DNA of 43,127 nt, from the IMG/VR virus record IMGVR_UViG_2529293240_000022; one strand, given 5' to 3'. This DNA comes from a virus (Duplodnaviria > Heunggongvirae > Uroviricota > Caudoviricetes). A program made the translations under genes and the position numbers. Shown here one piece after another: positions 5,481 through 43,127 of this stretch. The first letter of the stretch is position 1. Each line of letters starts with the position of its first letter. Below the pieces are notes generated by a model. It ran no database searches. It had not been told where the DNA came from and saw nothing but the letters and a program-made list of their open reading frames with translations.

Positions 5481-6628
5481 ACAGTTTAACGGCAAATAAC
5501 CGTTTGTCGCAACAGCTGGTGGTCAGTGTCGCTGAACACCTGTTGTTACGGCATGAATGCAGATTACCAGATCACCTGGCTGTAAGTAACCACAGAGAAC
5601 TTTACCTGACTGTGGGGGGCGAGTTGTGCAGGAACTTAACCGCTGGTTTCGTGACGGAAGAGGGCTTTATGTCCATGTTATTCGTTGGGAGCCAGAAACA
5701 CAGCGCGTTATCTATCTTCGCAAAGACTACCAGCATGAGTGCTTTAGTCCTTTGTGGAAATTCAGGCGTGATTTTGTTGAGTGTGAAGGACCACCAGCAC
5801 ATTGATTCTGCCATTCCGGGACGTTACACTGTTCAGGCACCTTATAAAGCGGGTGCCGGGATTGGCGTCCTGAAATTGATTACTGAGCATAACCGCGCTC
5901 ATGCGGTTTTTTCGTGTCATGAGCATTGCTACGCCCAAATTATGGTGGGGCGTACAGGGCCGACTTCGGTCGGGCCGGGTTCGGTAGTCTCCGGTAACGC
6001 CAACCCTGTACGTCTCACCACCTCTGTGATTGGCGTCCCATGTGGTGAGTTTTCTAAAAAACTGACTACCGGGGCTGTCACTATGACTACTCTCCCAACC
6101 CTCACTCAACCTGAAATTGCCATCGTTGATGGTCAGGCTGTTACTTCATCCCTGGCTGTTGCCAACTTCTTCTCCAAACGTCATGACGATGTACTGAAAA
6201 AGATCCGCACGCTTGAATGCTCCGCATCATTCACTGCCCGCAATTTTTCGGTGAGTGATTACACCGATTGCACAGGCCGCAAACTACCTTGCTATCAAAT
6301 CACCCGCGATGGCTTTGCGTTCCTTGCTATGGGCTTCACTGGTAAACGTGCTGCCCGGTTCAAAGAGGCATACATAAATGCCTTTAACCAGATGGAAAAA
6401 CTGCTTTCAAAGCCATCCACGCTGAGCGATGCCGCAGATAACGCCAGCGTGCTTTACTCCCACCTGTCGGTAATCCACAAGGTCTGGCTGCAGCAGCTTT
6501 ATCCCATGTTGGCAAAAGCCGAATCTCCGCTGGCTGTTAGCTTGTATGACTATATTAATGATGCTTCGGCGCTGGCCTGCCTCATAAATTTGTCGCTGAA
6601 TCCTTCAGAGGTAAGGGGGCGTAAATGA
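5477..6628 (+). CDS. Rha-family phage regulatory protein, copy 1, with unique 105-aa N-terminal extension
   Basis: Rha-type core (KRHDDVL...LPCYQITRDGFAFLAMGFTGKRA...FKEAYINAFNQME); ATGA overlap with upstream gene. Confidence 0.6.
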   Translation: MNSLTANNRLSQQLVVSVAEHLLLRHECRLPDHLAVSNHRELYLTVGGELCRNLTAGFVTEEGFMSMLFVGSQKHSALSIFAKTTSMSALVLCGNSGVILLSVKDHQHIDSAIPGRYTVQAPYKAGAGIGVLKLITEHNRAHAVFSCHEHCYAQIMVGRTGPTSVGPGSVVSGNANPVRLTTSVIGVPCGEFSKKLTTGAVTMTTLPTLTQPEIAIVDGQAVTSSLAVANFFSKRHDDVLKKIRTLECSASFTARNFSVSDYTDCTGRKLPCYQITRDGFAFLAMGFTGKRAARFKEAYINAFNQMEKLLSKPSTLSDAADNASVLYSHLSVIHKVWLQQLYPMLAKAESPLAVSLYDYINDASALACLINLSLNPSEVRGRK

Positions 6629-7527
6629 TCCGGAATATTTTCAAACTGTTTACCAATCGCCACCAGCACATTGATTCTGCCATTCCGGGACGTTACACTG
6701 TTCAGGCACCTTATAAAGCGGGTGCCGGGCGTGGAAACCCGAAATTCAATATAGAGCACAACCGCGCTCATGCGGTTTTTTCGTGTCATGAGCATCGTTA
6801 CGCCCAAATTATGGTGGGGCGTGCAGGGCCAACTTCGGTTGGGCCGGGTTCTATGTTGACCGGTATTTCCACCCCTGTACGTCTCACCACCTATATGGTC
6901 GTGGAAAGCCTTGGTGGTGAGTTCATTGAATTCAACATAGGGGCTGTCACCATGACTACTCTCCCAACCCAATCTCACCCTGAAATCACGATTATCAATG
7001 GTCGCGTTGTCACCACATCTCTTGCAGTAGCTAATTACTTTACTAAACGGCATGAGCGGGTTTTAGATAGAATTAGAAACCTCGAATGTTCCGCTGAATT
7101 TACTGAACACAATTTTGTGTTAAGTGAATACACCGACGCATCAGGCCGCAAACTCCCTTGTTACCAAATCACCCGCGACGGTTTTGCGTTTCTTGCCATG
7201 GGCTTCACGGGTAAACGTGCTGCCCAGTTCAAAGAGGCATACATCAATGCCTTTAACCAGATGGAGAAACAGCTTTCAAATCCCTCTGTACTGAGCGACG
7301 TTGCACATAACGCCAGCGTTCTCTATTCCTACATTTCATCAATTCATCAGGTCTGGCTGCAGCAGCTTTATCCTATGTTGGCAAAAGCCGAATCTCCGCT
7401 GGCTGTTAGCTTGTATGACTATATTAATGATGCTTCGGCACTGGCCTGCCTCATAAATTTGTCGCTGAACCCTTCAGAGGTAAGGGGGCGTAAATGATCC
7501 GGAATATTTTCAAACGGTTTACCAATC
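5792..7527 (+). repeat. Tandem direct duplication, two units of about 866 bp (5792-6657 and 6662-7527), mosaic identity
   Basis: first ~70 nt and last ~140 nt of the units are near-identical while the interior is substantially diverged, with an in-frame 3-nt indel; the 36-nt junction ATGATCCGGAATATTTTCAAAC... occurs at 6625 and 7494. Confidence 0.8.
6625..7497 (+). CDS. Rha-family phage regulatory protein, copy 2 (alternative internal start at 6952)
   Basis: paralogue of copy 1 with identical 5' and 3' ends and a diverged core; ATGA overlap. Confidence 0.65.
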   Translation: MIRNIFKLFTNRHQHIDSAIPGRYTVQAPYKAGAGRGNPKFNIEHNRAHAVFSCHEHRYAQIMVGRAGPTSVGPGSMLTGISTPVRLTTYMVVESLGGEFIEFNIGAVTMTTLPTQSHPEITIINGRVVTTSLAVANYFTKRHERVLDRIRNLECSAEFTEHNFVLSEYTDASGRKLPCYQITRDGFAFLAMGFTGKRAAQFKEAYINAFNQMEKQLSNPSVLSDVAHNASVLYSYISSIHQVWLQQLYPMLAKAESPLAVSLYDYINDASALACLINLSLNPSEVRGRK

Positions 7528-14014: not shown

Positions 14015-14090
14015 GGCCCTTTAGCTCAGTGGTGAGAGCGAGCGACTCATAATCGCCAGGTCGCTGGTTCAAATCCAGCAAGGGCCACCA
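14015..14090 (+). tRNA. ileZ: tRNA with CAU anticodon, tRNA-Ile2 (lysidine)-like, ileZ-like
   Basis: cloverleaf folded by hand: 7-bp acceptor stem GGCCCTT/AAGGGCC, anticodon loop CTCATAA, T-loop TTCAAAT, 3' CCA; closely resembles E. coli ileX. Confidence 0.8.
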
Positions 14091-14099
14091 TATCACATA

Positions 14100-14176
14100 C
14101 CGCCATTAGCTCATCGGGATAGAGCGCCAGCCTTCGAAGCTGGTTGCGCGGGGTTCGAGTCCTCGATGGCGGTCCA
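14100..14176 (+). tRNA. tRNA-Arg (anticodon UCG), argN-like
   Basis: cloverleaf folded by hand: acceptor CCGCCAT/ATGGCGG, anticodon loop CTTCGAA, T-loop TTCGAGT, 3' CCA. Confidence 0.7.
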
Positions 14177-14189
14177 TTATCTGTACCCT

Positions 14190-14266
14190 GCGTTGTTAGC
14201 TCAGCCGGACAGAGCAATTGCCTTCTAAGCAATCGGTCACTGGTTCGAATCCAGTACAACGCGCCA
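14190..14266 (+). tRNA. tRNA-Arg (anticodon UCU), argO-like
   Basis: cloverleaf folded by hand: acceptor GCGTTGT/ACAACGC, anticodon loop CTTCTAA, T-loop TTCGAAT, 3' CCA. Confidence 0.75.
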
Positions 14267-14305: not shown

Positions 14306-14501
14306 AAATGTCTCACAATTCAGACGGTTGACAGTTGTCTGTTTTGCGGGGAGTTTGTTAAAAGAAACTGGCATGGTGAATCCCCCTGTGCGGAGGGGCA
14401 ATCAGCGAGTAGGTATATGGGATAATCGCGGATTCAGGTGCTGGTACTGAATTCACCGGGAGGCACCCGGCACCATGCAATGGCACATAGCGCCACTCTC
14501 C

Positions 14502-14561
14502 AGCCCCTCTCCGGAGGGGCTTTCTTATGGACAAAAAAAGCCCGCGCTGGGAGACGCGGGC
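14502..14561. terminator. Back-to-back hairpins in the tRNA to nanS-p spacer
   Basis: plus-strand AGCCCCTC-TCCG-GAGGGGCT (14502-14521) then TTCTT; minus-strand terminator GCCCGCG...CGCGGGC (14540-14561) preceded by A7. Confidence 0.4.
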
Positions 14562-14754
14562 GGCAAGGAATAAACAACAAAACGTGAAGTAATATTTCAG
14601 CTGGCGAATAATATCCGACAGTAATCACTCTGCGCAATAGCGCGGCCTTTTTCGTATTGCGGGCTGTTGTCTCTCTTCTGCCATTGTCCTGTAACTTCCG
14701 GACTTCAGCCCGCTCCTCATTTTACTCACAATATTATCCCGGCCGGGAGGATTC

Positions 14755-16608
14755 ATGGCATTTAAACACTATGATGTTGTCAGGGCGGCGTCGCCGTCAG
14801 ACCTTGCGGAAAAGCTGACACACAAACTGAAAGAGGGCTGGCAGCCATATGGCGGACCGGTTGCCATTACGCCGTACACACTGATGCAGGCGGTGGCTAT
14901 TGAAGGAGATCCACAGGTCGGCCCTTCATCTGAGCCGGACTGGTTCTACGTGGTTGTGCTTGCCGGACAGTCCAACGGCATGGCCTACGGTGAAGGGCTT
15001 CCGTTACCGGATTCTTACGATGCTCCGGATCCGCGCATTAAACAGCTGGCGCGCCGCAGCACGGTAACTCCGGGTGGAGAGAGTTGTACGTATAACGACA
15101 TCATCCCGGCTGACCACTGTCTGCATGATGTGCAGGATATGAGTACGCTGAATCATCCGAAGGCAGACCTGAGCAAAGGGCAGTACGGCTGTGTCGGCCA
15201 GGGCTTACATATTGCCAAAAAACTGCTCCCGTATATCCCGAATAACGCGGGGATCCTGCTGGTACCATGCTGTCGTGGTGGTTCGGCATTCACCCAGGGC
15301 GCGGAGGGGACATTCAGTGCGGACGCGGGGGCCAGCCAGGATTCGGCGCGCTGGGGTGTGGGTAAACCGTTATATCAGGACCTGATTGCGCGCACTAAAG
15401 CTGCATTACAGAAGAACCCGAAAAATGTGTTGCTGGCGGTGTGCTGGATGCAGGGAGAGTTTGACATGAGCGCCGCCACCTACGCACAGCAACCTGCGCT
15501 GTTTACAGCCATGCTGAAGCAGTTTCGTGCTGACCTCACTGTGTTTAACGCGCAGTGTCATGGTGGCAGTGCTGTAAATGTGCCGTGGATTTGTGGTGAC
15601 ACGACGTATTACTGGAAAAACACCTACGGCACGCAGTACAACACCATTTACGGGGCGTACAAAAACAGGGAGAGTGAGGGCGTTTATTTTGTGCCCTTCA
15701 TGACAGACGGTAACGGCGTCAATACCGCCACTAACGCGCCGGCAGAAGATCCGGATATTCCGGCATCAGGATATTACGGTGCGGCATCGAGAACGAATGG
15801 AAACCAGGTATCATCAAACCGCCCGACACATTTCAGTTCATGGGCGCGCAGGAGCATTATTCCGGATCGTATGGCAACCGCTATTCTGAACGCAGCCGGG
15901 CGCACCTCAGCCTTCATCAGTGGTAAGGCACCGGAAATCAAACCCTCGCCCGGCGGCGACACGCCATCGGGGCCGCCTGAAGATGCATCCGTACGCACAA
16001 TCTCCCTGCTGCCGACAGCCGGAGAGGCTGCTGCGCAGGGCTGGACCATTAAGGACGGCGGAATTCAGTTGTCGGGTGGTGTATTTAAGATCGCCAAGCA
16101 GAGCAATAAAACCTGGTCCCTGATGCATCCGGTGGATGACGCAGTCTCCCTGCTGACACGGGGTGGCAGACTGAGCTGTAAGTTTCGACTGTCAGGCGCA
16201 CTGACCAACAACCAGTTCGGTCTGGGAATTTATCTGTATACCGATGTAGCGTTACCTGACGTCGTGGCGATGACCGGGACTGGTAACCCGTTCCTGATGT
16301 CGTTCTTCACCCAGACCACAGACGGCAAACTGAATCTGATGCATCACAAGAAAGCCGGAAACACAAAGTTGGGCGAGTTCGGGAATTACAGTAACGACTG
16401 GCAGACGCTGGAGCTGGTGTTCACCGCCGGCAGTGCCACGGTTACTCCGAAACTGAATGGAGTGGCTGGCCCGGCATTCCAGGTCATAAAAGACAGTCTG
16501 ACACTGGGACTGAATGCGTTGACGCTGACGGATGTTACAAAAAATGCAGCGTATGGCGTTGAGATAGAAAGTCTGGTGCTGGAGATAAATGCACCGGCAT
16601 CATCATAA
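14755..16608 (+). CDS. NanS-p-like prophage sialate O-acetylesterase (N-terminal DUF1737-like region plus SGNH hydrolase)
   Basis: 617-aa translation with GQSN motif (VVLAGQSNGMAYGEG); position between tRNAs and lysis genes as in Stx phages; GGGAGG site. Confidence 0.65.
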   Translation: MAFKHYDVVRAASPSDLAEKLTHKLKEGWQPYGGPVAITPYTLMQAVAIEGDPQVGPSSEPDWFYVVVLAGQSNGMAYGEGLPLPDSYDAPDPRIKQLARRSTVTPGGESCTYNDIIPADHCLHDVQDMSTLNHPKADLSKGQYGCVGQGLHIAKKLLPYIPNNAGILLVPCCRGGSAFTQGAEGTFSADAGASQDSARWGVGKPLYQDLIARTKAALQKNPKNVLLAVCWMQGEFDMSAATYAQQPALFTAMLKQFRADLTVFNAQCHGGSAVNVPWICGDTTYYWKNTYGTQYNTIYGAYKNRESEGVYFVPFMTDGNGVNTATNAPAEDPDIPASGYYGAASRTNGNQVSSNRPTHFSSWARRSIIPDRMATAILNAAGRTSAFISGKAPEIKPSPGGDTPSGPPEDASVRTISLLPTAGEAAAQGWTIKDGGIQLSGGVFKIAKQSNKTWSLMHPVDDAVSLLTRGGRLSCKFRLSGALTNNQFGLGIYLYTDVALPDVVAMTGTGNPFLMSFFTQTTDGKLNLMHHKKAGNTKLGEFGNYSNDWQTLELVFTAGSATVTPKLNGVAGPAFQVIKDSLTLGLNALTLTDVTKNAAYGVEIESLVLEINAPASS

Positions 16609-26985: not shown

Positions 26986-27012
26986 CGGGGGCGAAATGCC
27001 CCCGTGTTTTTT
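26986..27012 (+). terminator. Rho-independent terminator immediately after the major capsid gene
   Basis: stem CGGGGGC, loop GAAAT, stem GCCCCCG then TGTTTTTT. Confidence 0.6.
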
Positions 27013-27027
27013 CACAGGGAGCTGGAT

Positions 27028-27396
27028 ATGGCAACAAAAGAAGAAAATCAGAAACGTCTTCGTGAACTGGCTGGTCTGCTGGGGCGCGAGGCGGATATGT
27101 CGGGGAGTGCTGCGGATATCGCACAGCGTGTGGCAGAGTGGGAAGAGGAGGTTTGCGCCTCGGAAAATGAAATCGCAGATGTTGATGATACCGTTCATGA
27201 GCAGGCATGCAGGCACACCGGTGAGGATGACGTTGGTATTCTGGAACGTATCAGGCTTCTGAAGTGTTTTTACCTGTGCGGTGTTGACGATGAAACAGGT
27301 GAGCCTGTTGAGCATGTTGATGCTGGCAGAGTAATTCTGATGCCCCCCTCAGTGGCAAAAGACATGGTTAGGAGCGGAATGGCCGTTTATGCGTGA
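27028..27396 (+). CDS. FI: DNA packaging protein FI-like
   Basis: position between E and FII; acidic protein; start at MATKEEN. Confidence 0.6.
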   Translation: MATKEENQKRLRELAGLLGREADMSGSAADIAQRVAEWEEEVCASENEIADVDDTVHEQACRHTGEDDVGILERIRLLKCFYLCGVDDETGEPVEHVDAGRVILMPPSVAKDMVRSGMAVYA

Positions 27397-27742
27397 TTTT
27401 GAGAATTCCTTTGATGCTGCCCTTGCCGGGGTGGACAGAACGATTGTTGAAGTGATGGGGCTCTGTGCGCAGTTCACCTCGGGGGCACAGTGTGGCAGCG
27501 AAGTTCAGGGGGTTTTTGACGATCCGGAGTCGCTGGGGTTTGCCGGTAGCGGGGTCCGTATTGAAGGAAGCAGCCCGTCATTATTTGTGCGGACGGATAC
27601 GGTTCGTGCCGTGCGGCGTGGTGACACGCTGACCATTAATGGTGAGACATTCTGGGTGGATCGTGTTTCTCCGGATGACGGGGGTAGCTGTTATCTCTGG
27701 CTCAACCGTGGGCAACCACCCGCAGTTAACCGGCGACGATAA
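27389..27742 (+). CDS. FII: Head-tail joining protein gpFII
   Basis: 117 aa, lambda FII-like. Confidence 0.9.
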   Translation: MRDFENSFDAALAGVDRTIVEVMGLCAQFTSGAQCGSEVQGVFDDPESLGFAGSGVRIEGSSPSLFVRTDTVRAVRRGDTLTINGETFWVDRVSPDDGGSCYLWLNRGQPPAVNRRR

Positions 27743-27756
27743 ACGCAGGGTGAATT

Positions 27757-28332
27757 ATGGCGATAAAAGGGCTTGATCAGGCGATTGACAATCTGAGCCG
27801 GGTTCGTAAAAACGCCATTCCGGCTGCTTCTGCAATGACCATTAACCGCGTGGCCACAACGGCGATTAATCAGTCTTCGTCACAGGTTGCCCGGGAAACC
27901 AGGGTGAGACGGAAACTGGTAAAGGAACGGTCCAGACTGAAACGGGCGACGGTCAGAAATCCGAATGCCAGAATTATCGTTAACCGCGGTGATCTCCCTG
28001 TGATTAAGCTGGGGATCAGAATGCTGGGGCGTCGTCCGAACAGCATACTCAAAGCCGGTCAGCATCGTTATCAGCGGGCATTTATCCAGCGATTAAATAA
28101 TGGGCGCTGGCATGTTATGCAACGTCTTCCCCAGGCCAGATATAAGGAGGGCAATGACGACAAGGGAAGGAAAAAGCGTAATCGCCTTCCCATTCAGGTG
28201 GTGAAAATCCCGATGGCGGCCCCACTGAAACAGGCATTTGATGAGAATGTTGACCGTATCCGGCGTGAACGCCTGCCTAAAGAACTGGCATACGCGCTGA
28301 AACAACAACTGAGGATTGCGATAAAACGATGA
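27757..28332 (+). CDS. Z: Tail completion protein gpZ
   Basis: 191 aa, lambda Z-like. Confidence 0.9.
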   Translation: MAIKGLDQAIDNLSRVRKNAIPAASAMTINRVATTAINQSSSQVARETRVRRKLVKERSRLKRATVRNPNARIIVNRGDLPVIKLGIRMLGRRPNSILKAGQHRYQRAFIQRLNNGRWHVMQRLPQARYKEGNDDKGRKKRNRLPIQVVKIPMAAPLKQAFDENVDRIRRERLPKELAYALKQQLRIAIKR

Positions 28333-28724
28333 AACACACTGACATTCGTGCCGCAGTGCTGGATGCACTCGAGCAGCATGAACACGGGGCGACGCTGTTT
28401 GATGGTCGCCCCGTTGTTTTTGACGAAGAGGATTTTCCTGCGATCGCGGTTTATCTGACGGATGCAGAGTATACCGGTGAAGAGCTGGATGCAGATACCT
28501 GGCGGGCCACACTGCATATTGAGGTGTTTTTACCGGCACAGGTACCGGATTCAGAGCTCGATCAGTGGATGGAAAGCCGGATTTACCCGGCGATGACCGC
28601 GATCCCGGCACTGGCAGGACTGATTACCACGATGGTTACGCAGGGCTATGAGTATCGTCGTGATGACGATATGGCGTTATGGAGTTCTGCAGATCTGACT
28701 TATTCCATTACATACGAGATGTGA
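28329..28724 (+). CDS. U: Tail terminator protein gpU
   Basis: 131 aa, lambda U-like. Confidence 0.9.
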
Positions 28725-28731
28725 GGACGAT

Positions 28732-29487
28732 ATGGCAACACCAAATCCCCTTGAGCCGGTAAAAGGTGCCGGTACCACTCTGTGGGTTTACAACGGCAAG
28801 GGTGATGCTTATGCAAACCCGTTGTCAGACGATGACTGGCAGCGACTGGCTAAGGTGAAGGATCTGACGCCGGGCGAGATGACGGCAGAATCCTACGATG
28901 ATAACTACCTGGATGATGAAGACGCGGACTGGACCGCGACCGGGCAGGGGCAGAAATCTGCAGGTGATACCAGTTTTACGCTGGCCTGGAAACCGGGAGA
29001 GGAAGGCCAGAAAGGGCTTATAGGCTGGTTTGAAAGCGGCGATGTCCGGGCCTATAAAATCCGTTTTCCGAATGGCACGGTGGATGTGTTTCGTGGCTGG
29101 GTCAGCAGTATCGGTAAGGCCGTGACGGCGAAAAAAGAAGTGATCACCCGCACGGTGAAAGTCACTAACGTGGGTAAACCTTCTGTAGCGGAAGAACGCA
29201 GCAAAATTACGCCGGTCAGTGCGATTAAGGTGACGCCGACATCCGGTACGGTGGCAAAAGGGAAAACAACCACCCTGACGGTTTCTTTTGAGCCGGAAAG
29301 TGCAACCGACAAGACGTTCAGAGCGGTTTCCGCCGATCCGTCGAAAGCCACCATTAGTGTGAAAGATATGACAATTACGGTAAACGGCGTGGCGACAGGT
29401 AAGGTGCAGATCCCTGTGGTGAGCGGAAATGGTCAGTTCGCCGCAGTGGCTGAAGTCACCGTTACTGAAGCGGGCGCTGCAGGGTAA
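28732..29487 (+). CDS. V: Major tail protein gpV
   Basis: 251 aa, lambda V-like. Confidence 0.9.
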
Positions 29488-29500
29488 ACGGAGGTAATAC

Positions 29501-29932
29501 ATGTTTCTGAAAACAGAACAATTTGAATATAACGGTGTGTCTGTCACGCTTTCCGAATTGTCTGCGCTGCAGCGTATCGAGCATCTTTCCCTTCTGAAAC
29601 GGCGTGCAGAACAGGCAGAATCCTGCGGCAACCTGCAGGTAAGCGTGGAAGATCTCGTCAGAACCGGCGCGTTTCTGGTGGCGATGTCCCTGTGGCATAA
29701 CCATCCACAGAAAACGCAGTCACCGTCAATGAATGAGGCCGTGATGAAGATAGAGCAGGAAGTGCTCACCACCTGGCCTGCCGATGCCATTGCCCGGGCG
29801 GAAGACGTGGTGTTGTGCCTGTCCGGGATGATCGAAGCTGTTCGTCCGGATACTGATATTACTGAAGTGGCGAAAAATAACACGCTGACTGATGATGATT
29901 TTTCTGCGGGAAAGTCTTCGACGGCGAGCTGA
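29501..29932 (+). CDS. G: Tail assembly chaperone gpG
   Basis: 143 aa, lambda G-like. Confidence 0.9.
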   Translation: MFLKTEQFEYNGVSVTLSELSALQRIEHLSLLKRRAEQAESCGNLQVSVEDLVRTGAFLVAMSLWHNHPQKTQSPSMNEAVMKIEQEVLTTWPADAIARAEDVVLCLSGMIEAVRPDTDITEVAKNNTLTDDDFSAGKSSTAS

Positions 29933-30372
29933 ACTTTGCCCTCAGACTGGCGCGTGAGATGGGGAGACCCGACTGGCGCGCCATGCTTGCCGGGATGACA
30001 TCCACCGAATATGCCGACTGGCACCGTTTTTACCGCACGCATTATTTTCAGGATACCCAGCTGGATATGCATTTTTCCGGGCTGACGTACGCTGTACTCA
30101 GCCTGTTTTTTTGCGATCCGGATATGCATCCCTCTGATTTCAATCTGCTTGTCCCCCGGCATGAGGAAGAGCAGGTGGAGAGGCCGGATGAGGACAAAAT
30201 GCTGATGCAGAAAGCGGCAGGACTTGCCGGAGGCGTCCGGTTCGGTGGGGACGGAGGGCGCGATATTTTATCGTCTGCGGATGTGGCGGATGTCATGGTG
30301 GATGATGCCGCATTAATGATGGCTTCAGCGGGGATTCCGGGAGGTGTGAGATATGTCCCAGCCGGTTGGTGA
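29501..30372 (+). CDS. T: Tail assembly chaperone gpGT made by -1 programmed frameshift at G GGA AAG (29908-29914)
   Basis: slippery heptamer read in the G frame; T-frame ORF 29959..30372 lacks its own start context. Confidence 0.8.
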
Positions 30373-32926
30373 TCTTGTTATTGACCTGAGTCTGGATGCT
30401 GTCCGTTTCGATGAGCAGATGAGCCGGGTAAGGCGTCATTTTTCAGGTCTGGATACCGACGCCAGAAAAACCGCCAGTGCTGTTGAACAGGGCCTGAGCC
30501 GCCAGGCGCTGGCTGCACAAAAAGCCGGGATTTCCGTCGGGCAGTATAAAGCGGCCATGCGAACCCTGCCCGCACAGTTTACGGATATCGCCACGCAGCT
30601 TGCCGGTGGTCAGAATCCCTGGCTGATCCTGCTGCAACAGGGCGGTCAGGTGAAGGACTCCTTCGGCGGGATGATCCCCATGTTCAGGGGGCTCGCCGGT
30701 GCGATCACCCTGCCGATGGTCGGGGTCACCTCGCTGGCGGTGGCGACAGGTGCGCTGGTGTACGCCTGGTACCAGGGAGATTCCACGCTTTCAGCGTTTA
30801 ATAAAACCCTGGTTCTTTCCGGTAATCAGTCCGGACTGACTGCCGATCGTATGCTGACTCTCTCAAGAGCCGGGCAGGCAGCAGGGCTGACGTTTAACCA
30901 GGCGAGAGAGTCACTGGCAGCCCTGGTGAATGCCGGTGTGCGTGGTGGTGAACAGTTTGATGCCATCAACCAGAGTGTCGCGCGTTTTGCGTCTGCATCC
31001 GGTGTGGAGGTGGATAAAGTCGCTGAAGCCTTCGGGAAGCTGACCACTGACCCGACGTCGGGACTGATGGCGATGGCGCGCCAGTTCCGTAACGTGACGG
31101 CAGAGCAGATTGCGTATGTTGCACAGCTGCAGCGTTCCGGAGACGAGGCCGGGGCATTGCAGGCGGCGAACGATATCGCCACGAAAGGCTTTGATGAGCA
31201 GACCCGTCGCCTGAAAGAAAACATGGGAACACTGGAGACCTGGGCGGATAAAACAGGGAGGGCATTCAAATCGATGTGGGATGCCATTCTGGATATCGGT
31301 CGTCCTGAATCCTCAGCGGATATGCTCGCCAGTGCGCAGAAGGCATTTGATGAGGCGGATAAAAAATGGCAGTGGTACCAGAGCCGGAGCCAGCGCCGGG
31401 GAAAAACCGCCTCTTTTCGTGCGAACCTTCAGGGGGCATGGGATGACCGGGAAAATGCCCGTCTGGGTCTGGCAGCGGCCACGCTGCAGTCGGATATGGA
31501 AAAAGCCGGTGAACTGGCGGCAAGGGACCGGGCTGAGCGTGAGGCGTCACAGCTGAAGTATACCGGAGAGGCGCAGAAGGCGTATGAGCGCCTGCAGACG
31601 CCGCTGGATAAATATACCGCCCGTCAGAAAGAGCTGAATAAGGCCCTGAAAGACGGAAAAATCCTGCAGGCGGATTACAACACGCTGATGGCGTCGGCAA
31701 AAAAGGATTATGAATCGACGCTGAAAAAGCCGTCAGGTGTGAAGGTGTCTGCCGGTGAGCGCCAGGAAGACCGGGCGCATGCAGCCATGCTGGCGCTTGA
31801 AACCGAGCTCAGGACGCTGGAAAAACACAGCGGTGTGAATGAGAAAATCAGCCAGCAGCGCCGGGATTTATGGGAAGCGGAAAATCAGTATGTGGTCCTG
31901 AAAGAGGCCGCCACGAAACGGCAGTTATCTGAGCAGGAAAAATCCCTGCTGGCCCATGAGAAAGAAACGCTGGAGTACAAACGCCAGCTGGCTGAGCTGG
32001 GCGACAAGATTGAACACCAGAAACGGCTGAATGAGCTGGCACAGCAGGCGGCGCGGTTTGAACAGCAGCAGAGCGCGAAGCAGGCGGCAATCAGCGCAAA
32101 AGCCCGCGGACTCACCGACCGTCAGGCGCAGCGGGAGTCGGAAGAGCAGCGCCTTCGTGAGGTGTACGGTGATAATCCGGCTGCGCTGGCGAAGGCCACA
32201 TCTGCACTGAAGAACACCTGGTCTGCGGAGGAGCAGCTTCGTGGAAGCTGGATGGCCGGGATGAAGTCCGGCTGGGGCGAGTGGGCGGAAAGTGCGACGG
32301 ACAGTTTTTCGCAGGTTAAAAACGCGGCCACGCAGACCTTTGACGGTATTGCACAGAATATGGCAGCGATGCTGACCGGCAGCGAACAGAACTGGCGTGG
32401 TTTCACCCGTTCTGTGCTGTCCATGCTGACAGAGATTTTTCTGAAGCAGGCGATGGTGGGGATAGTCGGGAGTATCGGCAGCGCCATTGGCGGGGCTGTT
32501 GGTGGCGGCGCATCCGCGTCAGGCGGTACAGCCATTCAGGCTGCGGCGGCGAACTTCCATTTCGCGACCGGGGGATTTACGGGGACGGGGGGTAAATATG
32601 AACCTGCGGGGATTGTTCATCGCGGGGAGTTTGTCTTCACGAAGGAGGCGACCAGCCGGATTGGTGTCGGCAATCTGTACCGCCTGATGCGGGGCTATGC
32701 GGAAGGTGGTTATGTCGGCGGTGCCGGAAGTCCGGCGCAGATGCGGCGGGCGGAAGGCATTAATTTTAATCAGAACAATCACGTGGTGATTCAGAACGAC
32801 GGCCCCAACGGGCGGGCAGGGCCGCAGCTGATGAAAGCGGTGTATGAGATGGCCCGCAAGGGGGCACAGGATGAACTCCGGCTGCAGTTGCGTGATGGCG
32901 GTATGTTATCAGGGAGCGGTGGATGA
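30353..32926 (+). CDS. H: Tail tape-measure protein gpH
   Basis: 857 aa, lambda H-like. Confidence 0.95.
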   Translation: MSQPVGDLVIDLSLDAVRFDEQMSRVRRHFSGLDTDARKTASAVEQGLSRQALAAQKAGISVGQYKAAMRTLPAQFTDIATQLAGGQNPWLILLQQGGQVKDSFGGMIPMFRGLAGAITLPMVGVTSLAVATGALVYAWYQGDSTLSAFNKTLVLSGNQSGLTADRMLTLSRAGQAAGLTFNQARESLAALVNAGVRGGEQFDAINQSVARFASASGVEVDKVAEAFGKLTTDPTSGLMAMARQFRNVTAEQIAYVAQLQRSGDEAGALQAANDIATKGFDEQTRRLKENMGTLETWADKTGRAFKSMWDAILDIGRPESSADMLASAQKAFDEADKKWQWYQSRSQRRGKTASFRANLQGAWDDRENARLGLAAATLQSDMEKAGELAARDRAEREASQLKYTGEAQKAYERLQTPLDKYTARQKELNKALKDGKILQADYNTLMASAKKDYESTLKKPSGVKVSAGERQEDRAHAAMLALETELRTLEKHSGVNEKISQQRRDLWEAENQYVVLKEAATKRQLSEQEKSLLAHEKETLEYKRQLAELGDKIEHQKRLNELAQQAARFEQQQSAKQAAISAKARGLTDRQAQRESEEQRLREVYGDNPAALAKATSALKNTWSAEEQLRGSWMAGMKSGWGEWAESATDSFSQVKNAATQTFDGIAQNMAAMLTGSEQNWRGFTRSVLSMLTEIFLKQAMVGIVGSIGSAIGGAVGGGASASGGTAIQAAAANFHFATGGFTGTGGKYEPAGIVHRGEFVFTKEATSRIGVGNLYRLMRGYAEGGYVGGAGSPAQMRRAEGINFNQNNHVVIQNDGPNGRAGPQLMKAVYEMARKGAQDELRLQLRDGGMLSGSGG

Positions 32927-33252
32927 AAACCTTTCGCTGGAAAGTGAAGCCGGATATGGAGGTGAACTCGCAGCCATCGGTGCGTGAAGTGCGTTTTGGT
33001 GACGGGTACTCACAGCGTATGGCGGCAGGGCTGAATGCTGACCTGAAAACATACAGGGTGACGCTTTCCGTGACCCGGGAGGAGGCCCGGCATCTGGAAG
33101 CGTTCCTGGCAGAGCACGGTGGCTGGAAGGCATTTTTGTGGAAGCCACCCTATGCATACCGGCAGATAAAGGTGACCTGTGCCGGGTGGTCTGCGCGGGT
33201 CGGGATGTTGCGCGTTGAGTTCAGCGCGGAGTTTAAGCAGGTGGTGAACTGA
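32923..33252 (+). CDS. M: Minor tail protein gpM
   Basis: 109 aa, lambda M-like. Confidence 0.9.
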   Translation: MKTFRWKVKPDMEVNSQPSVREVRFGDGYSQRMAAGLNADLKTYRVTLSVTREEARHLEAFLAEHGGWKAFLWKPPYAYRQIKVTCAGWSARVGMLRVEFSAEFKQVVN

Positions 33253-33950
33253 TGCAGGATATTCACGAAGAAAGTCTGAGCGAGTCGGTTAAATCAGAGC
33301 AGTCACCGCGGGTGGTACTCTGGGAAATCGACCTGACGGTACAGGGCGGTGAGCGGTATTTTTTCTGTAATGAGCTGAATGAAAAAGGGGAGCCGGTCAC
33401 CTGGCAGGGGCGGCAATATCAGGCATACCCGATTGACGGCAGCGGTTTTGAGATGAGCGGGAAGGGCAGCAGTGCCAGACCGTCGCTGACGGTGTCCAAT
33501 CTGTTCGGTCTGGTCACCGGGATGGCGGAAGACCTGCAGAGTCTGGTGGGGGCCACGGTGGTCCGCCGCCGGGTGTATGCCCGTTTTCTGGATGCGGTGA
33601 ATTTCGGTGCGGGCAATCCGGCGGCGGACCCGGAGCAGGAGCTGAGTGACCGCTGGGTGGTGGAGCAGATGTCGCAGCTGACAGCCATGACGGCCTCGTT
33701 TGTGCTGGCCACACCGACCGAGACGGACGGGGCGCTGTTTCCCGGTCGTATCATGCTGGCGAACACCTGTATGTGGACCTACCGCTCTGATGAGTGTGGT
33801 TACACGGGCGGGGCTGTGGCGGATGAGTTCGATAAACCCACCACCGATATCCGTAAGGACAGATGCAGCAAGTGCATGCGCGGGTGTGAGATGCGCGGCA
33901 TGGTGGCTAATTTTGGCGGTTTCCTTTCCATTAATAAACTTTCGCAGTAA
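33252..33950 (+). CDS. L: Minor tail protein gpL
   Basis: 232 aa, lambda L-like. Confidence 0.9.
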   Translation: MQDIHEESLSESVKSEQSPRVVLWEIDLTVQGGERYFFCNELNEKGEPVTWQGRQYQAYPIDGSGFEMSGKGSSARPSLTVSNLFGLVTGMAEDLQSLVGATVVRRRVYARFLDAVNFGAGNPAADPEQELSDRWVVEQMSQLTAMTASFVLATPTETDGALFPGRIMLANTCMWTYRSDECGYTGGAVADEFDKPTTDIRKDRCSKCMRGCEMRGMVANFGGFLSINKLSQ

Positions 33951-33960
33951 ATCCCGGTTT

Positions 33961-34704
33961 ATGACACAGACAGAATCAGCGATTCTGGCACACACCCGGC
34001 GGTGTGTGCCTGCGGAGTCGTGCGGCTTCGTGGTGAGAACGCCGGAGGGGGAGCGGTATATCCCTTGTGTGAATATCTCTGCAGAGCCGGAGGCGTATTT
34101 TCGTATTGCACCGGAAGACTGGCTGTGGGCAGAGATGCAGGGGGAGATTGTGGCACTGGTCCACAGTCATCCCGGTGGTCTGCCCTGGCTGAGCGAGGCC
34201 GACCGGCGGCTGCAGATAAAAAGTGCACTGTCCTGGTGGCTGGTCTGCCGGGGGGAAATTCATAAATTCCGCTGTGTGCCACATCTGACAGGACGGCGCT
34301 TTGAGCACGGGGTGACGGACTGTTACACGCTGTTCCGGGATGCCTACCATCTGGCGGGAATTGATATGCCGGATTTTGAGCGTGAGGATGACTGGTGGCG
34401 CAACGGTCAGAACCTTTACCTGGACAATATGGCGGTCACCGGCTTTTACCGGGTGCCCCTGTCCTCTGCACAGGCGGGCGATATCCTGCTGTGCTGCTTT
34501 GGCGCATCGGTGGCCAATCATGCCGCCATTTACTGCGGCAACGGTGAACTGCTTCACCATCTGCCTGAACAACTGAGTAAACGGGAGAGGTATTCCGAAA
34601 AATGGCAACGACGAACGCATTCTGTCTGGCGTCACCGCCACTGGCACGCATCTGCCTTCACGGGGATTTACAACGATTTGGCCGCCGCCTCAGCCTGTAC
34701 GTGA
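33961..34704 (+). CDS. K: Tail tip assembly protein gpK; start uncertain
   Basis: lambda K-like with HSHP motif; start taken at first ATG after L (MTQTES); overlaps I by ~100 nt as in lambda. Confidence 0.7.
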   Translation: MTQTESAILAHTRRCVPAESCGFVVRTPEGERYIPCVNISAEPEAYFRIAPEDWLWAEMQGEIVALVHSHPGGLPWLSEADRRLQIKSALSWWLVCRGEIHKFRCVPHLTGRRFEHGVTDCYTLFRDAYHLAGIDMPDFEREDDWWRNGQNLYLDNMAVTGFYRVPLSSAQAGDILLCCFGASVANHAAIYCGNGELLHHLPEQLSKRERYSEKWQRRTHSVWRHRHWHASAFTGIYNDLAAASACT

Positions 34705-35282
34705 ACACGGCAGCGGAAGCCATCCGGGCGCTGTCGTTACAGGTGCCGGGATTCCGCCGTCAGATGAACGAAGGCTGGTACCAGATACGTATTCGCGGTG
34801 AGGACACGGCACCGGAGGCGGTGTACGCCCGTCTTCACGAACCTCTGGGTGAGGGGGCGGTCATCCACATTGTGCCGCGACTGGCCGGAGCCGGAAAGGG
34901 CGGACTGCAGATTGTGCTGGGGGCGGCAGCCATCGTGGGCTCTTTCTTCACTGCCGGAGGCTCGATGGCGTTATGGGGTACAGCCCTGAGTGCCGGTGGT
35001 TTTTCTGCCACCACGATGCTGTTTTCACTGGGTGCCAGTATGATTCTGGGCGGTGTGGCCCAGATGCTGGCACCGAAGGCAAAAACACCGGATTACCGCG
35101 CAACGGATAACGGTAAACAGAACACGTATTTTTCGTCACTGGACAATATGATTGCCCAGGGTAACCCGATGCCGGTGCCTTACGGGGAAATGCTGGTTGG
35201 TTCACGACGGATATCCCAGGACATCAGCACCCGTGATGAAGGCGGGGGCGGAAAGGTCGTGGTTATCGGGCGGCAGGGGTAA
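34602..35282 (+). CDS. I: Tail tip assembly protein gpI
   Basis: 226 aa, lambda I-like. Confidence 0.9.
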   Translation: MATTNAFCLASPPLARICLHGDLQRFGRRLSLYVNTAAEAIRALSLQVPGFRRQMNEGWYQIRIRGEDTAPEAVYARLHEPLGEGAVIHIVPRLAGAGKGGLQIVLGAAAIVGSFFTAGGSMALWGTALSAGGFSATTMLFSLGASMILGGVAQMLAPKAKTPDYRATDNGKQNTYFSSLDNMIAQGNPMPVPYGEMLVGSRRISQDISTRDEGGGGKVVVIGRQG

Positions 35283-35295
35283 AAAGAATAAAAAA

Positions 35296-35321
35296 ATCCC
35301 GCAGAGTTGCGGAACTGCGGG
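35296..35321 (-). terminator. Minus-strand terminator-like hairpin in the I-J spacer
   Basis: stem TCCCGCAG / CTGCGGGA preceded on plus strand by A7 (T-run on minus strand). Confidence 0.4.
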
Positions 35322-35453
35322 AGCGTTACGAAGATTAAGTGTAAGGAATTATTCTTATGTCACGACAAAAAACATTAACGCAGAGAAATTATTAGCACCA
35401 CAGTCAGTTTGTGAAAATGTGAAGATATTCAGAAGTTTTATTCAGTGATGATA

Positions 35454-35485
35454 CAGGCATCCTCAGGGATGCCTGTTGTTTTTGT
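35454..35485 (+). terminator. Plus-strand terminator-like hairpin ~30 nt upstream of J
   Basis: 9-bp stem CAGGCATCC / GGATGCCTG followed by TTGTTTTTGTG. Confidence 0.45.
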
Positions 35486-35517
35486 GCGTAACAGTTATCA
35501 CAGTAAAGGGTGAGACA

Positions 35518-38500
35518 ATGGGCAAAGGTGGCGGCAAGGCGCACACACCGCGCGAGGCGAAGGACAATCTCAAATCCACGCAGATGATGAGTGTGATTGA
35601 TGCGATTGGTGAGGGACCGATAGAAGGCCCGGTGAAGGGACTGCAGAGTATCCTGGTGAACAAAACCCCGCTGACGGACACGGACGGTAATCCCGTGATA
35701 CACGGTGTGACCGCGGTCTGGCGTGCCGGGGAGCAGGAGCAGACACCACCGGAAGGCTTTGAGTCCTCCGGAGCTGAAACCGGACTGGGCGTGGAAGTGA
35801 CGAAGGCAAAGCCGGTAACGCGCACCATTACATCCGCGAACATTGACCGCCTGCGGGTCACCTTCGGGGTGCAGTCACTGTTGGAGACCACCTCAAAGGG
35901 CGACCGTAATCCCTCTTCTGTCCGGCTGCTGATTCAGTTGCAGCGTAACGGTAACTGGGTGACGGAAAAGGATGTCACCATTAACGGCAAGACCACCTCA
36001 CAGTACCTGGCGTCGGTGATTCTGGATAATCTGCCTCCCCGTCCTTTTAACATCCGGATGGTCCGGGAGACGGCGGACAGCACCACGGACCAGCTGCAGA
36101 ACAGAACGCTGTGGTCGTCATACACCGAAATCATCGATGTGAAACAGTGCTACCCGAACACGGCGATTGTGGGGCTGCAGGTGGATGCGGAGCAGTTTGG
36201 CGGTCAGCAGATGACGGTGAACTACCATATCCGAGGTCGCATCATTCAGGTACCGTCAAACTATGACCCGGAAAAACGCACTTACAGCGGTATCTGGGAC
36301 GGCAGCCTGAAGCCGGCATACAGCAACAACCCGGCCTGGTGCCTGTGGGACATGCTGACTCACCCGCGCTACGGCATGGGAAAACGTCTGGGGGCGGCGG
36401 ATGTTGACAAGTGGGCGCTGTATGCCATCGGGCAGTACTGCGACCAGACGGTCCCGGATGGTTTCGGGGGCACAGAGCCGCGGATGACCTTTAATGCGTA
36501 CCTGTCACAACAGCGTAAGGCGTGGGACGTTCTCAGTGATTTCTGCTCTGCGATGCGCTGTATGCCGGTATGGAACGGTCAGACGCTGACGTTTGTTCAG
36601 GACCGCCCGTCGGATGTGGTGTGGCCGTACACCAGCAGCGATGTGGTGGTGGATGATAACGGCGTGGGGTTCCGCTACAGCTTCAGTGCCCTGAAGGACC
36701 GGCACACGGCGGTGGAGGTGAATTACACCGACCCGCAGAACGGCTGGCAGACCTCCACGGAACTGGTGGAAGACCCGGAAGCCATACTGCGCTACGGGCG
36801 CAACCTGCTGAAGATGGATGCGTTCGGCTGCACCAGTCGCGGTCAGGCCCACCGTGCCGGGCTGTGGGTGATAAAGACCGGACTGCTGGAAACGCAGACG
36901 GTGGATTTCACGCTCGGGTCACAGGGGCTGCGTCACACACCCGGTGACATTATTGAAATCTGTGATAATGACTATGCCGGGACCATGACCGGCGGACGTG
37001 TCCTGTACATCGATGCCGCCAGCCGCACCCTGACACTGGACCGTGAGGTGACCCTGCCGGAGACAGGTGCCGCCACGGTGAACCTGATTAACGGCAGCGG
37101 TAAGCCGGTGAGTGTGGACATCACTGCACACCCCGCGCCGGACCGGATACAGGTCAGCACCCTGCCTGATGGTGTGGAGACATACGGTGTATGGGGACTC
37201 TCCCTGCCGTCACTGCGTCGTCGCCTGTTCCGCTGTGTCTCCATCCGGGAAAACACGGACGGCACCTTTGCCATCACGGCGGTGCAGCACGTACCGGAAA
37301 AAGAAGCCATCGTGGATAACGGGGCCAGCTTTGAGCCGCAGTCAGGCACCCTGAACAGCGTTATTCCACCGGCAGTGCAGCACCTGACGGTGGAGGTGAG
37401 CGCGGCTGACGGTCAGTATCTGGCACAGGCGAAATGGGACACGCCGAGGGTGGTGAAGGGCGTGCGCTTCAGTCTGCGCCTGACCAGTGGAAGCGGTGAG
37501 AACAGCCGCCTGCTGACCACCGCCATCACTGCCGATACGGAGCACCGTTTCAGTGGCCTGCCTCTCGGGGAATACACCCTGACGGTCAGGGCGATTAACA
37601 GCTATGGCCAGCAGGGCGAACCCGCCACCACCACGTTCCGGATTAACGCACCGGCAGCGCCTGCCGGTGTTGAACTGACGCCGGGGTATTTTCAGATAAC
37701 GGCAGTCCCGAAACTGACCATTTATGACCCGACGGTGCAGTTTGAGTTCTGGTTTTCGGAGGCAAAAATTGCAGACGCCGCACAGGTGGAAACCTCTGCC
37801 CGTTATCTGGGGACCGGCAGTCAGTGGAGTGTATCCGGCCCGCACATTAAGCCCGGGAAGGATTTCTGGTTTTACGTGCGCAGCGTCAACCTGGTGGGGA
37901 AATCTGCGTTTGTGGAAGTCAGCGGGCAGCCCAGCAATGATGGTGAAGGGTATCTGGAATTTTTCCGGGAAAAAATAGGAAAACTGCATCTGGCTCAGGG
38001 GCTGTGGGAGCTGATAGACAACAGCCAGCTTGCGGATGAGATGGCGGAGATGAAGACCACCATCACCGAAACCCGCAATGAAATCACACAGACGGTCAGT
38101 AAAACGCTGGAGGACCAGAGCGCCACCATACAGCAGATACAGCGCGTGCAGAAGGACACAAATGATGACCTGACTGCGCTGTACATGCTGAAGGTTCAAA
38201 AAACGAAAGACGGCATTCCCTATGTGGCCGGGATTGGTGCAGGGATTGAGGATACTGATGGCCAGCCACTGAGCAACATACTGCTGCTGGCTGACCGTAT
38301 CGCGATGATAAATCCGGAGAGCGGCAACAGCACTCCGTTATTTGTGGCGCAGGGGAATCAGCTGTTCATGAACGACGTGTTCCTGAAGCGTCTGTTTGCG
38401 GCGAGTATCACGTCATCCGGCAACCCCCCGACGTTTTCCCTGACGCCGGAAGGGAAGCTGACAGCCAGGAACGCGGATATCAGCGGAGCAATTACCGCGA

Positions 38501-42543: not shown

Positions 42544-43127
42544 TGGCATTCAGAATGAGTGAACAACCACGGACCATAAAAATTTATAATCTGCTGGCCG
42601 GAACTAATGAATTTATTGGTGAAGGTGACGCATATATTCCGCCTCATACAGGTCTGCCTGCAAACAGTACCGATATTGCACCGTTAGATATTCCGGCAGG
42701 CTTCGTGGCTGTTTTCAACAGTGATGAGTCATCGTGGCATCTCTTTGAAGACCATCGGGGTAAAACGGTTTATGACGTGGCTTCCGGCGACGCGTTATTT
42801 ATTTCTGAACTCGGTCCGTTACCGGAAAATGTTACCTGGTTATCGCCGGAAGGGGAGTTTCAGAAGTGGAACGGCACAGCCTGGGTGAAGGATACGGAAG
42901 CAGAAAAACTGTTCCGGATCCGGGAGGCGGAAGAAACAAAAAACAACCTGATGCAGGTAGCCAGTGAGCATATTGCGCCGCTTCAGGATGCTGCAGATCT
43001 GGAAATTGCAACGGAGGAAGAAACCTCATTGCTGGAAGCCTGGAAAAAGTATCGGGTGTTGCTGAACCGTGTTGATACATCAACTGCACCTGATATTGAG
43101 TGGCCTACGAACCCTGTCAGGGAGTAA
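42543..43127 (+). CDS. tfa: Tail fibre assembly protein (Tfa)
   Basis: 194-aa translation typical of lambdoid Tfa; TAATG overlap with stf. Confidence 0.8.

Follow-up and report, generated by a model that had tools for sequence, protein, structure and literature searches.

A diverged allele of the PasB/EcOnc22-24 small RNA family is predicted in the spacer between tail genes I and J of a lambdoid prophage

The spacer between tail genes I and J of the prophage studied here very probably contains a small RNA (sRNA) gene of the family to which PasB of EPEC and EcOnc22-24 of EHEC belong; we put the probability of this reading at about 85%. The spacer element itself is real and already present in the literature under two names, and the copy described here is a diverged allele of it. 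Our analysis covered a 43,127-nucleotide viral sequence (IMG/VR record IMGVR_UViG_2529293240_000022), referred to below as the window. Gene I ends with a stop codon at 35280-35282 and the J ATG lies at 35518-35520 (ORF coordinates), which agrees with the 235-bp spacer (35283-35517) described in a first-pass annotation of this DNA. The lambda spacer, quoted there as about 60 bp, is exactly 60 bp (NC_001416, I ending at 15444 and J starting at 15505). The features of the region are as follows.

34602-35282, plus strand: tail assembly gene I, the left flank (Pfam PF06805 Lambda_tail_I, E = 3.9e-15), about 66% identical to lambda I
35290-35381, minus strand: PasB/EcOnc22-24-family sRNA gene, predicted primary transcript of about 92 nt (covariance model, homology and fold)
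35290-35321, minus strand: predicted intrinsic terminator of the sRNA, with a 7-bp stem (CCCGCAG/CUGCGGG), a 10-nt loop and a U7 tail
35323-35346, minus strand: conserved unpaired stretch UUAAUCUUCG directly 5' of the terminator, with AAUUCCUUACAC upstream, the likely seed region
35388-35415, minus strand: predicted sigma-70-type sRNA promoter, with -35 TTCACA (35415-35410), a 16-bp spacer and -10 AATAAT (35393-35388)
35418-35433, no strand assigned: putative CRP-like palindrome TGTGA-AGATAT-TCAGA upstream of the -35, A/T-rich up to 35441
35453-35486, plus strand: terminator-like hairpin before J, with a 10-bp stem, the loop TCAG and the tail UGUUUUUGUG
35504-35520, plus strand: J ribosome-binding site AAAGGGTGAG and ATG (J by Pfam PF24801 FNIII-A_GpJ, E = 6e-38)

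Two terminator-like hairpins had been noticed in the spacer, and both are there. On the minus strand, the stem at 35298-35321 is formed by CCCGCAG (35298-35304) and CTGCGGG (35315-35321) and is followed by a run of seven U from 35296 to 35290 (seven A on the plus strand at 35290-35296). On the plus strand, the stem at 35453-35476 is followed by a T-run. Their earlier description as convergent has to be reversed, since the minus-strand hairpin lies on the left and the plus-strand hairpin on the right; they stand back to back, and both would therefore end transcripts running outward. The 1.6 kb scanned around the spacer contains four terminator-like sites against 1.5 expected, and the two spacer hairpins are the best two. 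Both folded better than shuffled sequences, the 93-nt minus-strand RNA with a z of -3.9 and the plus-strand segment with one of -3.2. Rfam, searched over the whole window at gathering thresholds and over 35200-35600 at E <= 10, returned nothing relevant within the spacer, and RefSeq carries no annotation of the I-J spacer in a genome where that spacer is 100% identical.

The possibility that the spacer encodes a small RNA had been raised as an alternative in the first-pass annotation, and homologues of the PasB/EcOnc22-24 type now favor it: they occupy the same junction, run at about 83 to 85 nt on northern blots and are destabilized without Hfq in both EPEC and EHEC. Aligned end to end, the window spacer is 89% identical to the I-J spacer of EPEC E2348/69 that holds PasB. 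The least conserved portion of the spacer is the sRNA body, whose identity to PasB is about 70%; in a blastn search with the 83-nt PasB, only the 33-nt terminator aligned (40% of the query). Membership was therefore tested with a covariance model (R1) made from 12 other alleles of the family (E2348/69-type, Sakai-type and three other types), from which the window's own body type was excluded. The model matched the window over its full length at 35290-35381 on the minus strand (78.3 bits, E = 4.9e-13).

Comparison of 39 distinct alleles separates fixed from variable parts of the predicted RNA. All keep a 5' GCGUUA(A/G)U followed by a U-run, AAYUCC, an AAUCUU before the terminator, the 7-bp terminator stem and the U-tail, whereas about 30 nt in the middle of the body differ by type and the terminator loop ranges from 4 to 16 nt. 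The terminator stem is invariant in 16 of 17 aligned alleles, with loops of varying length, and AAUCUU is retained in every body type. The window RNA and the family consensus are both predicted to fold into a long unpaired 5' body followed by the terminator, an arrangement shared with many Hfq-dependent sRNAs. A likely seed directly upstream of the terminator has been proposed for PasB (Zhu et al., bioRxiv 10.64898/2026.05.13.724894).

PasB is an 83-nt RNA encoded on the minus strand of prophage PP6 (NC_011601.1, 1466343-1466261) between E2348C_1436 and E2348C_1437 (Pearl Mizrahi et al. 2021, PMC8550237), which RefSeq gives as a homologue of tail assembly protein I and as gpJ, with 240 bp between them. 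It was confirmed by northern blot, falls in an hfq mutant (log2 change of -6.8 and -2.4 under two conditions) and takes part in 37 RIL-seq interactions (PMC8550237); transcripts of the core genome, the T3SS and bfp are among the partners reported for it in EPEC. The published northern probe, AATCCCGCAGTGATCGCGGAGCT (PMC8550237), spans the terminator element in EPEC. PasB and the predicted window RNA share the I-J junction, the strand antisense to the late operon, a homologous promoter core and terminator, a 7-U tail and the AAUCUU before the terminator. They differ in the 5' and middle part (GUCGUGACAUAAGAAUAAUUCCUUACAC versus GCCCGAGUAACAAAAACAACUCCUUCACA) and in the terminator loop, which is shorter in one of them. 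With a blastn coverage of 40%, the window allele falls below the 75% coverage filter of the 2026 survey (bioRxiv 10.64898/2026.05.13.724894). Because the body is only about 70% identical and blastn finds the terminator alone, the targets of the window RNA may differ from those of PasB.

The second name comes from EHEC. EcOnc22, EcOnc23 and EcOnc24 were recorded as Hfq-CRAC peaks in prophages Sp15, Sp14 and Sp11 of O157:H7 Sakai (Tree et al. 2014, PMC4104026), and EcOnc22 was seen at about 85 nt on a northern blot and was destabilized without Hfq (PMC4104026). We find that all three peaks fall within the I-J spacers of these prophages and are antisense to the late operon. The coordinates in the published table lie about 137 nt below those of NC_002695.2, as calibrated on AsxR (135 to 139 nt), AgvB1 (137 to 146 nt) and STnc100, whose 3' end coincides with the 3' edge of EcOnc27 at exactly +137. 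After this shift, the EcOnc22 peak falls inside the PasB-like RNA. Taken at face value, the table would place EcOnc22 opposite the hairpin before J, a position ruled out by the genome-version shift together with the probe sequence. The common northern probe (GGGAGAGAACGATGAAGATTAAC...) lies in the Sakai spacers on the phage sense strand, adjoining the terminator, and therefore detects a minus-strand RNA. The Sakai allele occupies the same slot and strand as that of the window, and the probe matches the homologous segment; it differs in having another body and a diverged -35 region, while TGTGA-N6-TCAGA and its 24-nt distance to the -10 are kept. As judged by sequence, PasB and EcOnc22-24 belong to a single family whose members vary in the body. 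This link is stated neither in the PasB note of the EPEC paper nor in the 2026 survey, where the term 'EcOnc' is absent.

Like the PasB family, AgvB and AsxR (Rfam RF02702 and RF02703) are short, Hfq-binding prophage RNAs encoded at a moron site, and their 3' part is conserved while their 5' part varies. They occupy a different site from the window RNA, downstream of PR' and convergent with STnc100. An AgvB or AsxR identity for the spacer RNA was rejected, as neither model matched 35200-35600 at E <= 10 and these RNAs sit at the PR' site; as a control, both models do detect AgvB and AsxR in Sakai.

The predicted sRNA promoter scores 10 of 12 and is the joint best in 17000-36999, tied with one site at 20385; its -10 is AATAAT in the window and TATAAT in E2348/69. 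From this -10, transcription would start at about 35381 and yield an RNA of about 92 nt, whereas the published PasB 5' end, an estimate from read coverage (PMC8550237), corresponds to about 35366, 15 nt downstream. The 5' end may thus lie at either position, or the RNA may be processed at its 5' end. The upstream start is favored because all alleles conserve the GCGUUA-U-tract that separates the two candidate starts and because homology with spacers that carry sodC (see below) breaks off exactly at the sRNA -10.

Upstream of the -35 lies a palindrome that in context reads AAATGTGA-AGATAT-TCAGAAG. It matches TGTGA-N6-TCACA at nine of 10 positions; the window holds four such matches against 1.5 expected, a count at which the motif by itself is not significant. 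Its half-sites are invariant in all 180 non-sodC spacers, with AGATAT, AGAGTT or AGAAAT as the center, and the distance from the site to the -10 is 24 nt in every one of the 180, across three divergent promoter types that include the diverged -35 regions of the Sakai type and one further type (L216). The site is centered at about -44.5 if AATAAT is the -10 and at -41.5 if the overlapping GCTAAT serves instead. CRP-activated promoters have their site at -41.5 (class II) or at -61.5 and further upstream (class I). The TGTGA-N6-TCAGA element looks like a CRP-type dimer site, which we treat as a lead only. The level of PasB is higher in LB than in glucose-rich DMEM (PMC8550237), which fits CRP control loosely.

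The plus-strand hairpin in front of J is composed of ACAGGCATCC (35453-35462), the loop TCAG and GGATGCCTGT (35467-35476), followed by TGTTTTTGTG. With 10 pairs (six of them G-C), a loop of four and a U-rich tail directly 3', it has the makeup of a Rho-independent terminator, and segments of 51 to 62 nt that contain it fold at about -19 kcal/mol. Among 10 distinct alleles, one stem pair varies between T-A, C-G and T-G, and there is one C/A mismatch; covariation is weak: both partners have changed in only one pair, a result equalled by 44 of 500 shuffles. The 60-bp spacer of lambda (...GTGAAACCGCCTGCGGGCGGTTTTGTCATTT...; NC_001416, 15445-15504) contains the hairpin ACCGCC-TGCG-GGCGGT followed by TTTTGTC. 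Like that of the window, it is a GC hairpin with a T-run on the sense strand, 24 to 41 nt before the J ATG (24 nt in lambda); its stem sequence is unrelated, and the record annotates no function there. A literature search for a described lambda I-J terminator gave nothing useful. The lambda hairpin is common to HK629 and to many prophages of E. coli, Shigella and E. ruysiae, and it is kept in a Citrobacter prophage behind a 714-bp sodC insert. For more distant junctions, a few phage records were inspected by hand: unrelated hairpins precede J in Serratia phage Niamh (AAAGCCCC...GGGGCUUUUUUU) and in the T1-like Vibrio phage Vc1 (GCCCCG...CGGGGCUUUUUUUU), and Yersinia phage P400 has no I-J spacer at all. 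E. coli spacers of the sodC type show no clear terminator before J.

Because lambda and other J-bearing phages have such a hairpin at the same place, the one in the window most likely belongs to the I/J boundary and not to the insert, and is older than the sRNA gene. It agrees with that of lambda in position and type; homology between the two is not demonstrable from their sequences. The 235 bp had been presented as an insert. Comparison with lambda confirms that there is extra DNA, and reduces it to some 160 to 175 bp, namely the sRNA gene and its promoter; the plus-strand hairpin is nothing special to the insert, since analogues precede J in lambda and in distant siphoviruses. Strong plus-strand hairpins are rare in the late region, with only four in 17000-36999; the other three lie at 19334-19366, 25899-25920 and 26985-27005.

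Assignment of any specific role to this hairpin is doubtful. The first-pass annotation suggested that a terminator here would limit read-through into J, lom and stf. We consider it unlikely that the hairpin is a functional attenuator by which, during lytic growth, these three genes are transcribed less than the tail genes upstream. Its presence as a terminator-type structure before J in lambda, HK629, Citrobacter, Niamh and Vc1 and the scarcity of comparable hairpins in the late region are what one would expect of such a device, but late transcription in lambdoid phages is carried out by a Q-modified, terminator-resistant polymerase, and the U-tract is interrupted (UGUUUUUGUG). A back-to-back pair of sRNAs is less probable still. 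Here, a plus-strand RNA of about 60 nt would start near 35425 from an extended -10 (TGTGAAAAT) and end at the terminator at 35453-35486. The plus-strand segment is indeed laid out like an Hfq-type sRNA, in which an unpaired 5' part and a U-rich stretch precede a GC hairpin with its U-tail, and both right-hand modules that follow the shared core (that of the window and the one common in IMG/VR, GCCATTACCGG...) carry plus-strand terminator-like hairpins within 50 to 140 nt. The promoter scan, however, finds none on the plus strand, and lambda has a hairpin before J without any such core. The conserved core reaches about 60 nt upstream of where PasB is predicted to start, an extent for which a promoter and an activator or UP region suffice, and Table S5 of the EPEC RIL-seq data has no entry named from E2348C_1436/1437 other than PasB.

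Two further readings have a very low probability. The 12-codon ORF noted in the first-pass annotation exists at 35357-35395 (product MSRQKTLTQRNY*), with AAGGAA 7 nt upstream of its ATG, and a second ORF of 21 or 22 codons spans 35445-35513. That either encodes a small protein is highly improbable: the ATG at 35357 is absent from the E2348/69 homologue, while the ORF starting at 35445 or 35448 shifts in frame and length among alleles (21, 19 and 28 codons), has no Shine-Dalgarno sequence before 35448, and varies at compensating stem positions that alter its amino acids (S/P, M/V). Both the 12- and the 22-codon ORF were rejected as genes on conservation. The region is mosaic with many indels, as a recombination scar or decaying DNA with chance hairpins would be; yet the homologues are expressed and bound by Hfq, and published northern blots contradict this idea. 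The promoter, the terminator, the 5' GCGUUA-U-tract and AAUCUU are conserved across divergent alleles, and the fold z of -3.2 to -3.9 also speaks against chance, so we regard it as the least probable explanation of all. The preferred reading remains a PasB-family sRNA gene on the minus strand, and from its homologues we infer that the window allele is expressed and works as they do.

By the definition of Juhala et al. 2000, as cited in PMC4104026, a moron is additional DNA between genes that adjoin each other in related phages; it has its own promoter and terminator and is expressed from the prophage. Such DNA is present at the I-J junction of the window, where the spacer has 235 bp against 59 to 60 bp in lambda, HK629 and other prophages. 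Signals for a promoter and a terminator are there as well, and prophage expression is known for the homologues. The same slot carries other cargo elsewhere. In 12 E. coli loci (L157, L226, L234 and nine others), I-J spacers of 848 to 851 bp contain sodC on the minus strand (PF00080, E = 4e-32), located upstream of the PasB segment, with the PasB promoter, including its -10, replaced; the 3' region of sodC or another promoter could give rise to PasB in these loci. A 714-bp Citrobacter spacer (L143) also has sodC on the minus strand. These sodC morons share with the window sRNA the I-J slot and the antisense orientation and differ in that their cargo is a protein gene, for a Cu/Zn superoxide dismutase. 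Of two further loci, one has an IS3-family element within the right-hand module (L018), and in the other unrelated DNA, by eye a putative IS, replaces everything left of the PasB promoter core (L032). The I-J junction is thus a recurrent cargo site whose cargo is antisense to the operon.

The family is common among close relatives. The PasB terminator is found in 76 of 77 IMG/VR loci chosen solely by a J N-terminus at least 96% identical, a selection restricted to near relatives that says little on distant junctions. Matches to the window spacer are found in 1,378 of 5,426 complete E. coli genomes (median, two places per genome); in E. coli O39:NM F8704-2 the spacer is 100% identical. It also matches 149 phage records, for the most part Stx1a-, Stx2a- and Stx2c-converting phages. 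The commonest PasB spacer (L016, L007 and about 100 IMG/VR loci) is 336 to 344 bp long and has another right-hand module, GCCATTACCGGTTTTAACC..., after ...TTCAGAATTTTTAT. This alternative module, that of most IMG/VR PasB loci, has plus-strand hairpins too, with a nested hairpin (CCCCGGTATC/GATACCGGGG) inside GCATGAAA/TTTCATGC; one locus (L063) has the module without its inner 47 nt. Lambda's exact I-J spacer also appears in the genome_contigs set (L125-L152), in contigs assigned to Neobacillus, Pseudomonas, Shewanella, Bradyrhizobium and others; these contigs are about 48.4 to 48.5 kb (L127, L132, L135) or shorter with very low coverage, and are most likely phage lambda control DNA that contaminates the assemblies.

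Other RNA elements were observed elsewhere in the window. Tandem copies, about 870 bp apart, of isrK (RF01394) followed by a C4 antisense RNA (RF01695) occupy 5837-6025 and 6706-6894 on the plus strand, a duplicated module of a kind known from P1/P7 and Gifsy-type immunity regions. Three plus-strand tRNA genes (14015-14263) are followed 79 nt later by STnc100 (14342-14532, plus strand). In Sakai Sp5, stx2AB lies between the tRNAs and STnc100, and this toxin slot therefore appears empty in the window prophage. Abutting STnc100 and converging on it, in the position of AgvB/AsxR in Sakai, is a terminator-ended minus-strand segment at 14533-14621 (CCCGCG...CGCGGGCUUUUUUU). The PasB model matches it weakly, as its second hit (E = 0.053), Rfam has no match to it, and comparison with PasA and PasC gave no clear alignment; it may be an undescribed convergent sRNA. 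In the tail-fiber region, 42886-43084 on the plus strand is a full-length match to IS009 (RF02111, 225 bits), which is a typical neighbor of PasB (Zhu et al., bioRxiv 10.64898/2026.05.13.724894).

Taken as a mechanism, the spacer would hold an sRNA moron, a self-contained unit that has a sigma-70 promoter and an intrinsic terminator of its own and runs antisense to the tail operon, placed between the I stop codon and the older hairpin before J. The prophage would transcribe an RNA of about 92 nt from 35381 to 35290, possibly trimmed to about 80 nt, which Hfq would bind and stabilize and which would pair with mRNAs through the region around UUAAUCUUCG, including the invariant AAUCUU, and through its allele-specific body. 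In lytic growth an additional action in cis is conceivable, since the whole sRNA is complementary to the I-J segment of the late mRNA. The hairpin before J might stop unmodified polymerase ahead of J-lom-stf in the prophage state, or stray sense transcription across the sRNA gene; Q-modified polymerase would read through it in lytic growth, and it may protect the 3' end of a processed upstream mRNA. A more far-reaching proposal is that the I/J boundary is a conserved, terminator-marked border reused as a cargo slot, with a fast-diversifying sRNA cassette as cargo (fixed 5' GCGUUA-U-tract, AAUCUU and terminator around a swappable body) whose promoter is switched by CRP or a CRP-like factor through TGTGA-N6-TCAGA and, speculatively, with a second RNA of about 60 nt, transcribed divergently on the plus strand up to the terminator before J. 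Taken as one package, we think this unlikely to hold.

An sRNA locus that has been validated experimentally in its homologues was here picked out from the letters alone, and it is absent from Rfam and from RefSeq annotation. Roughly one in four complete E. coli genomes contains matches to this spacer, frequently more than one. The conserved CRP-like site offers a directly testable idea on control of the sRNA. Hairpins ahead of J recur from lambda to T1-like phages, a minor and as yet unexplained regularity in the tail operons of siphoviruses. The PasB family appears to be broader than the set defined by BLAST, with at least four or five body types that share one promoter architecture, a seed-proximal motif and a terminator. 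With bodies that differ from allele to allele, each prophage could have its own set of targets in EHEC, EPEC and other pathotypes.
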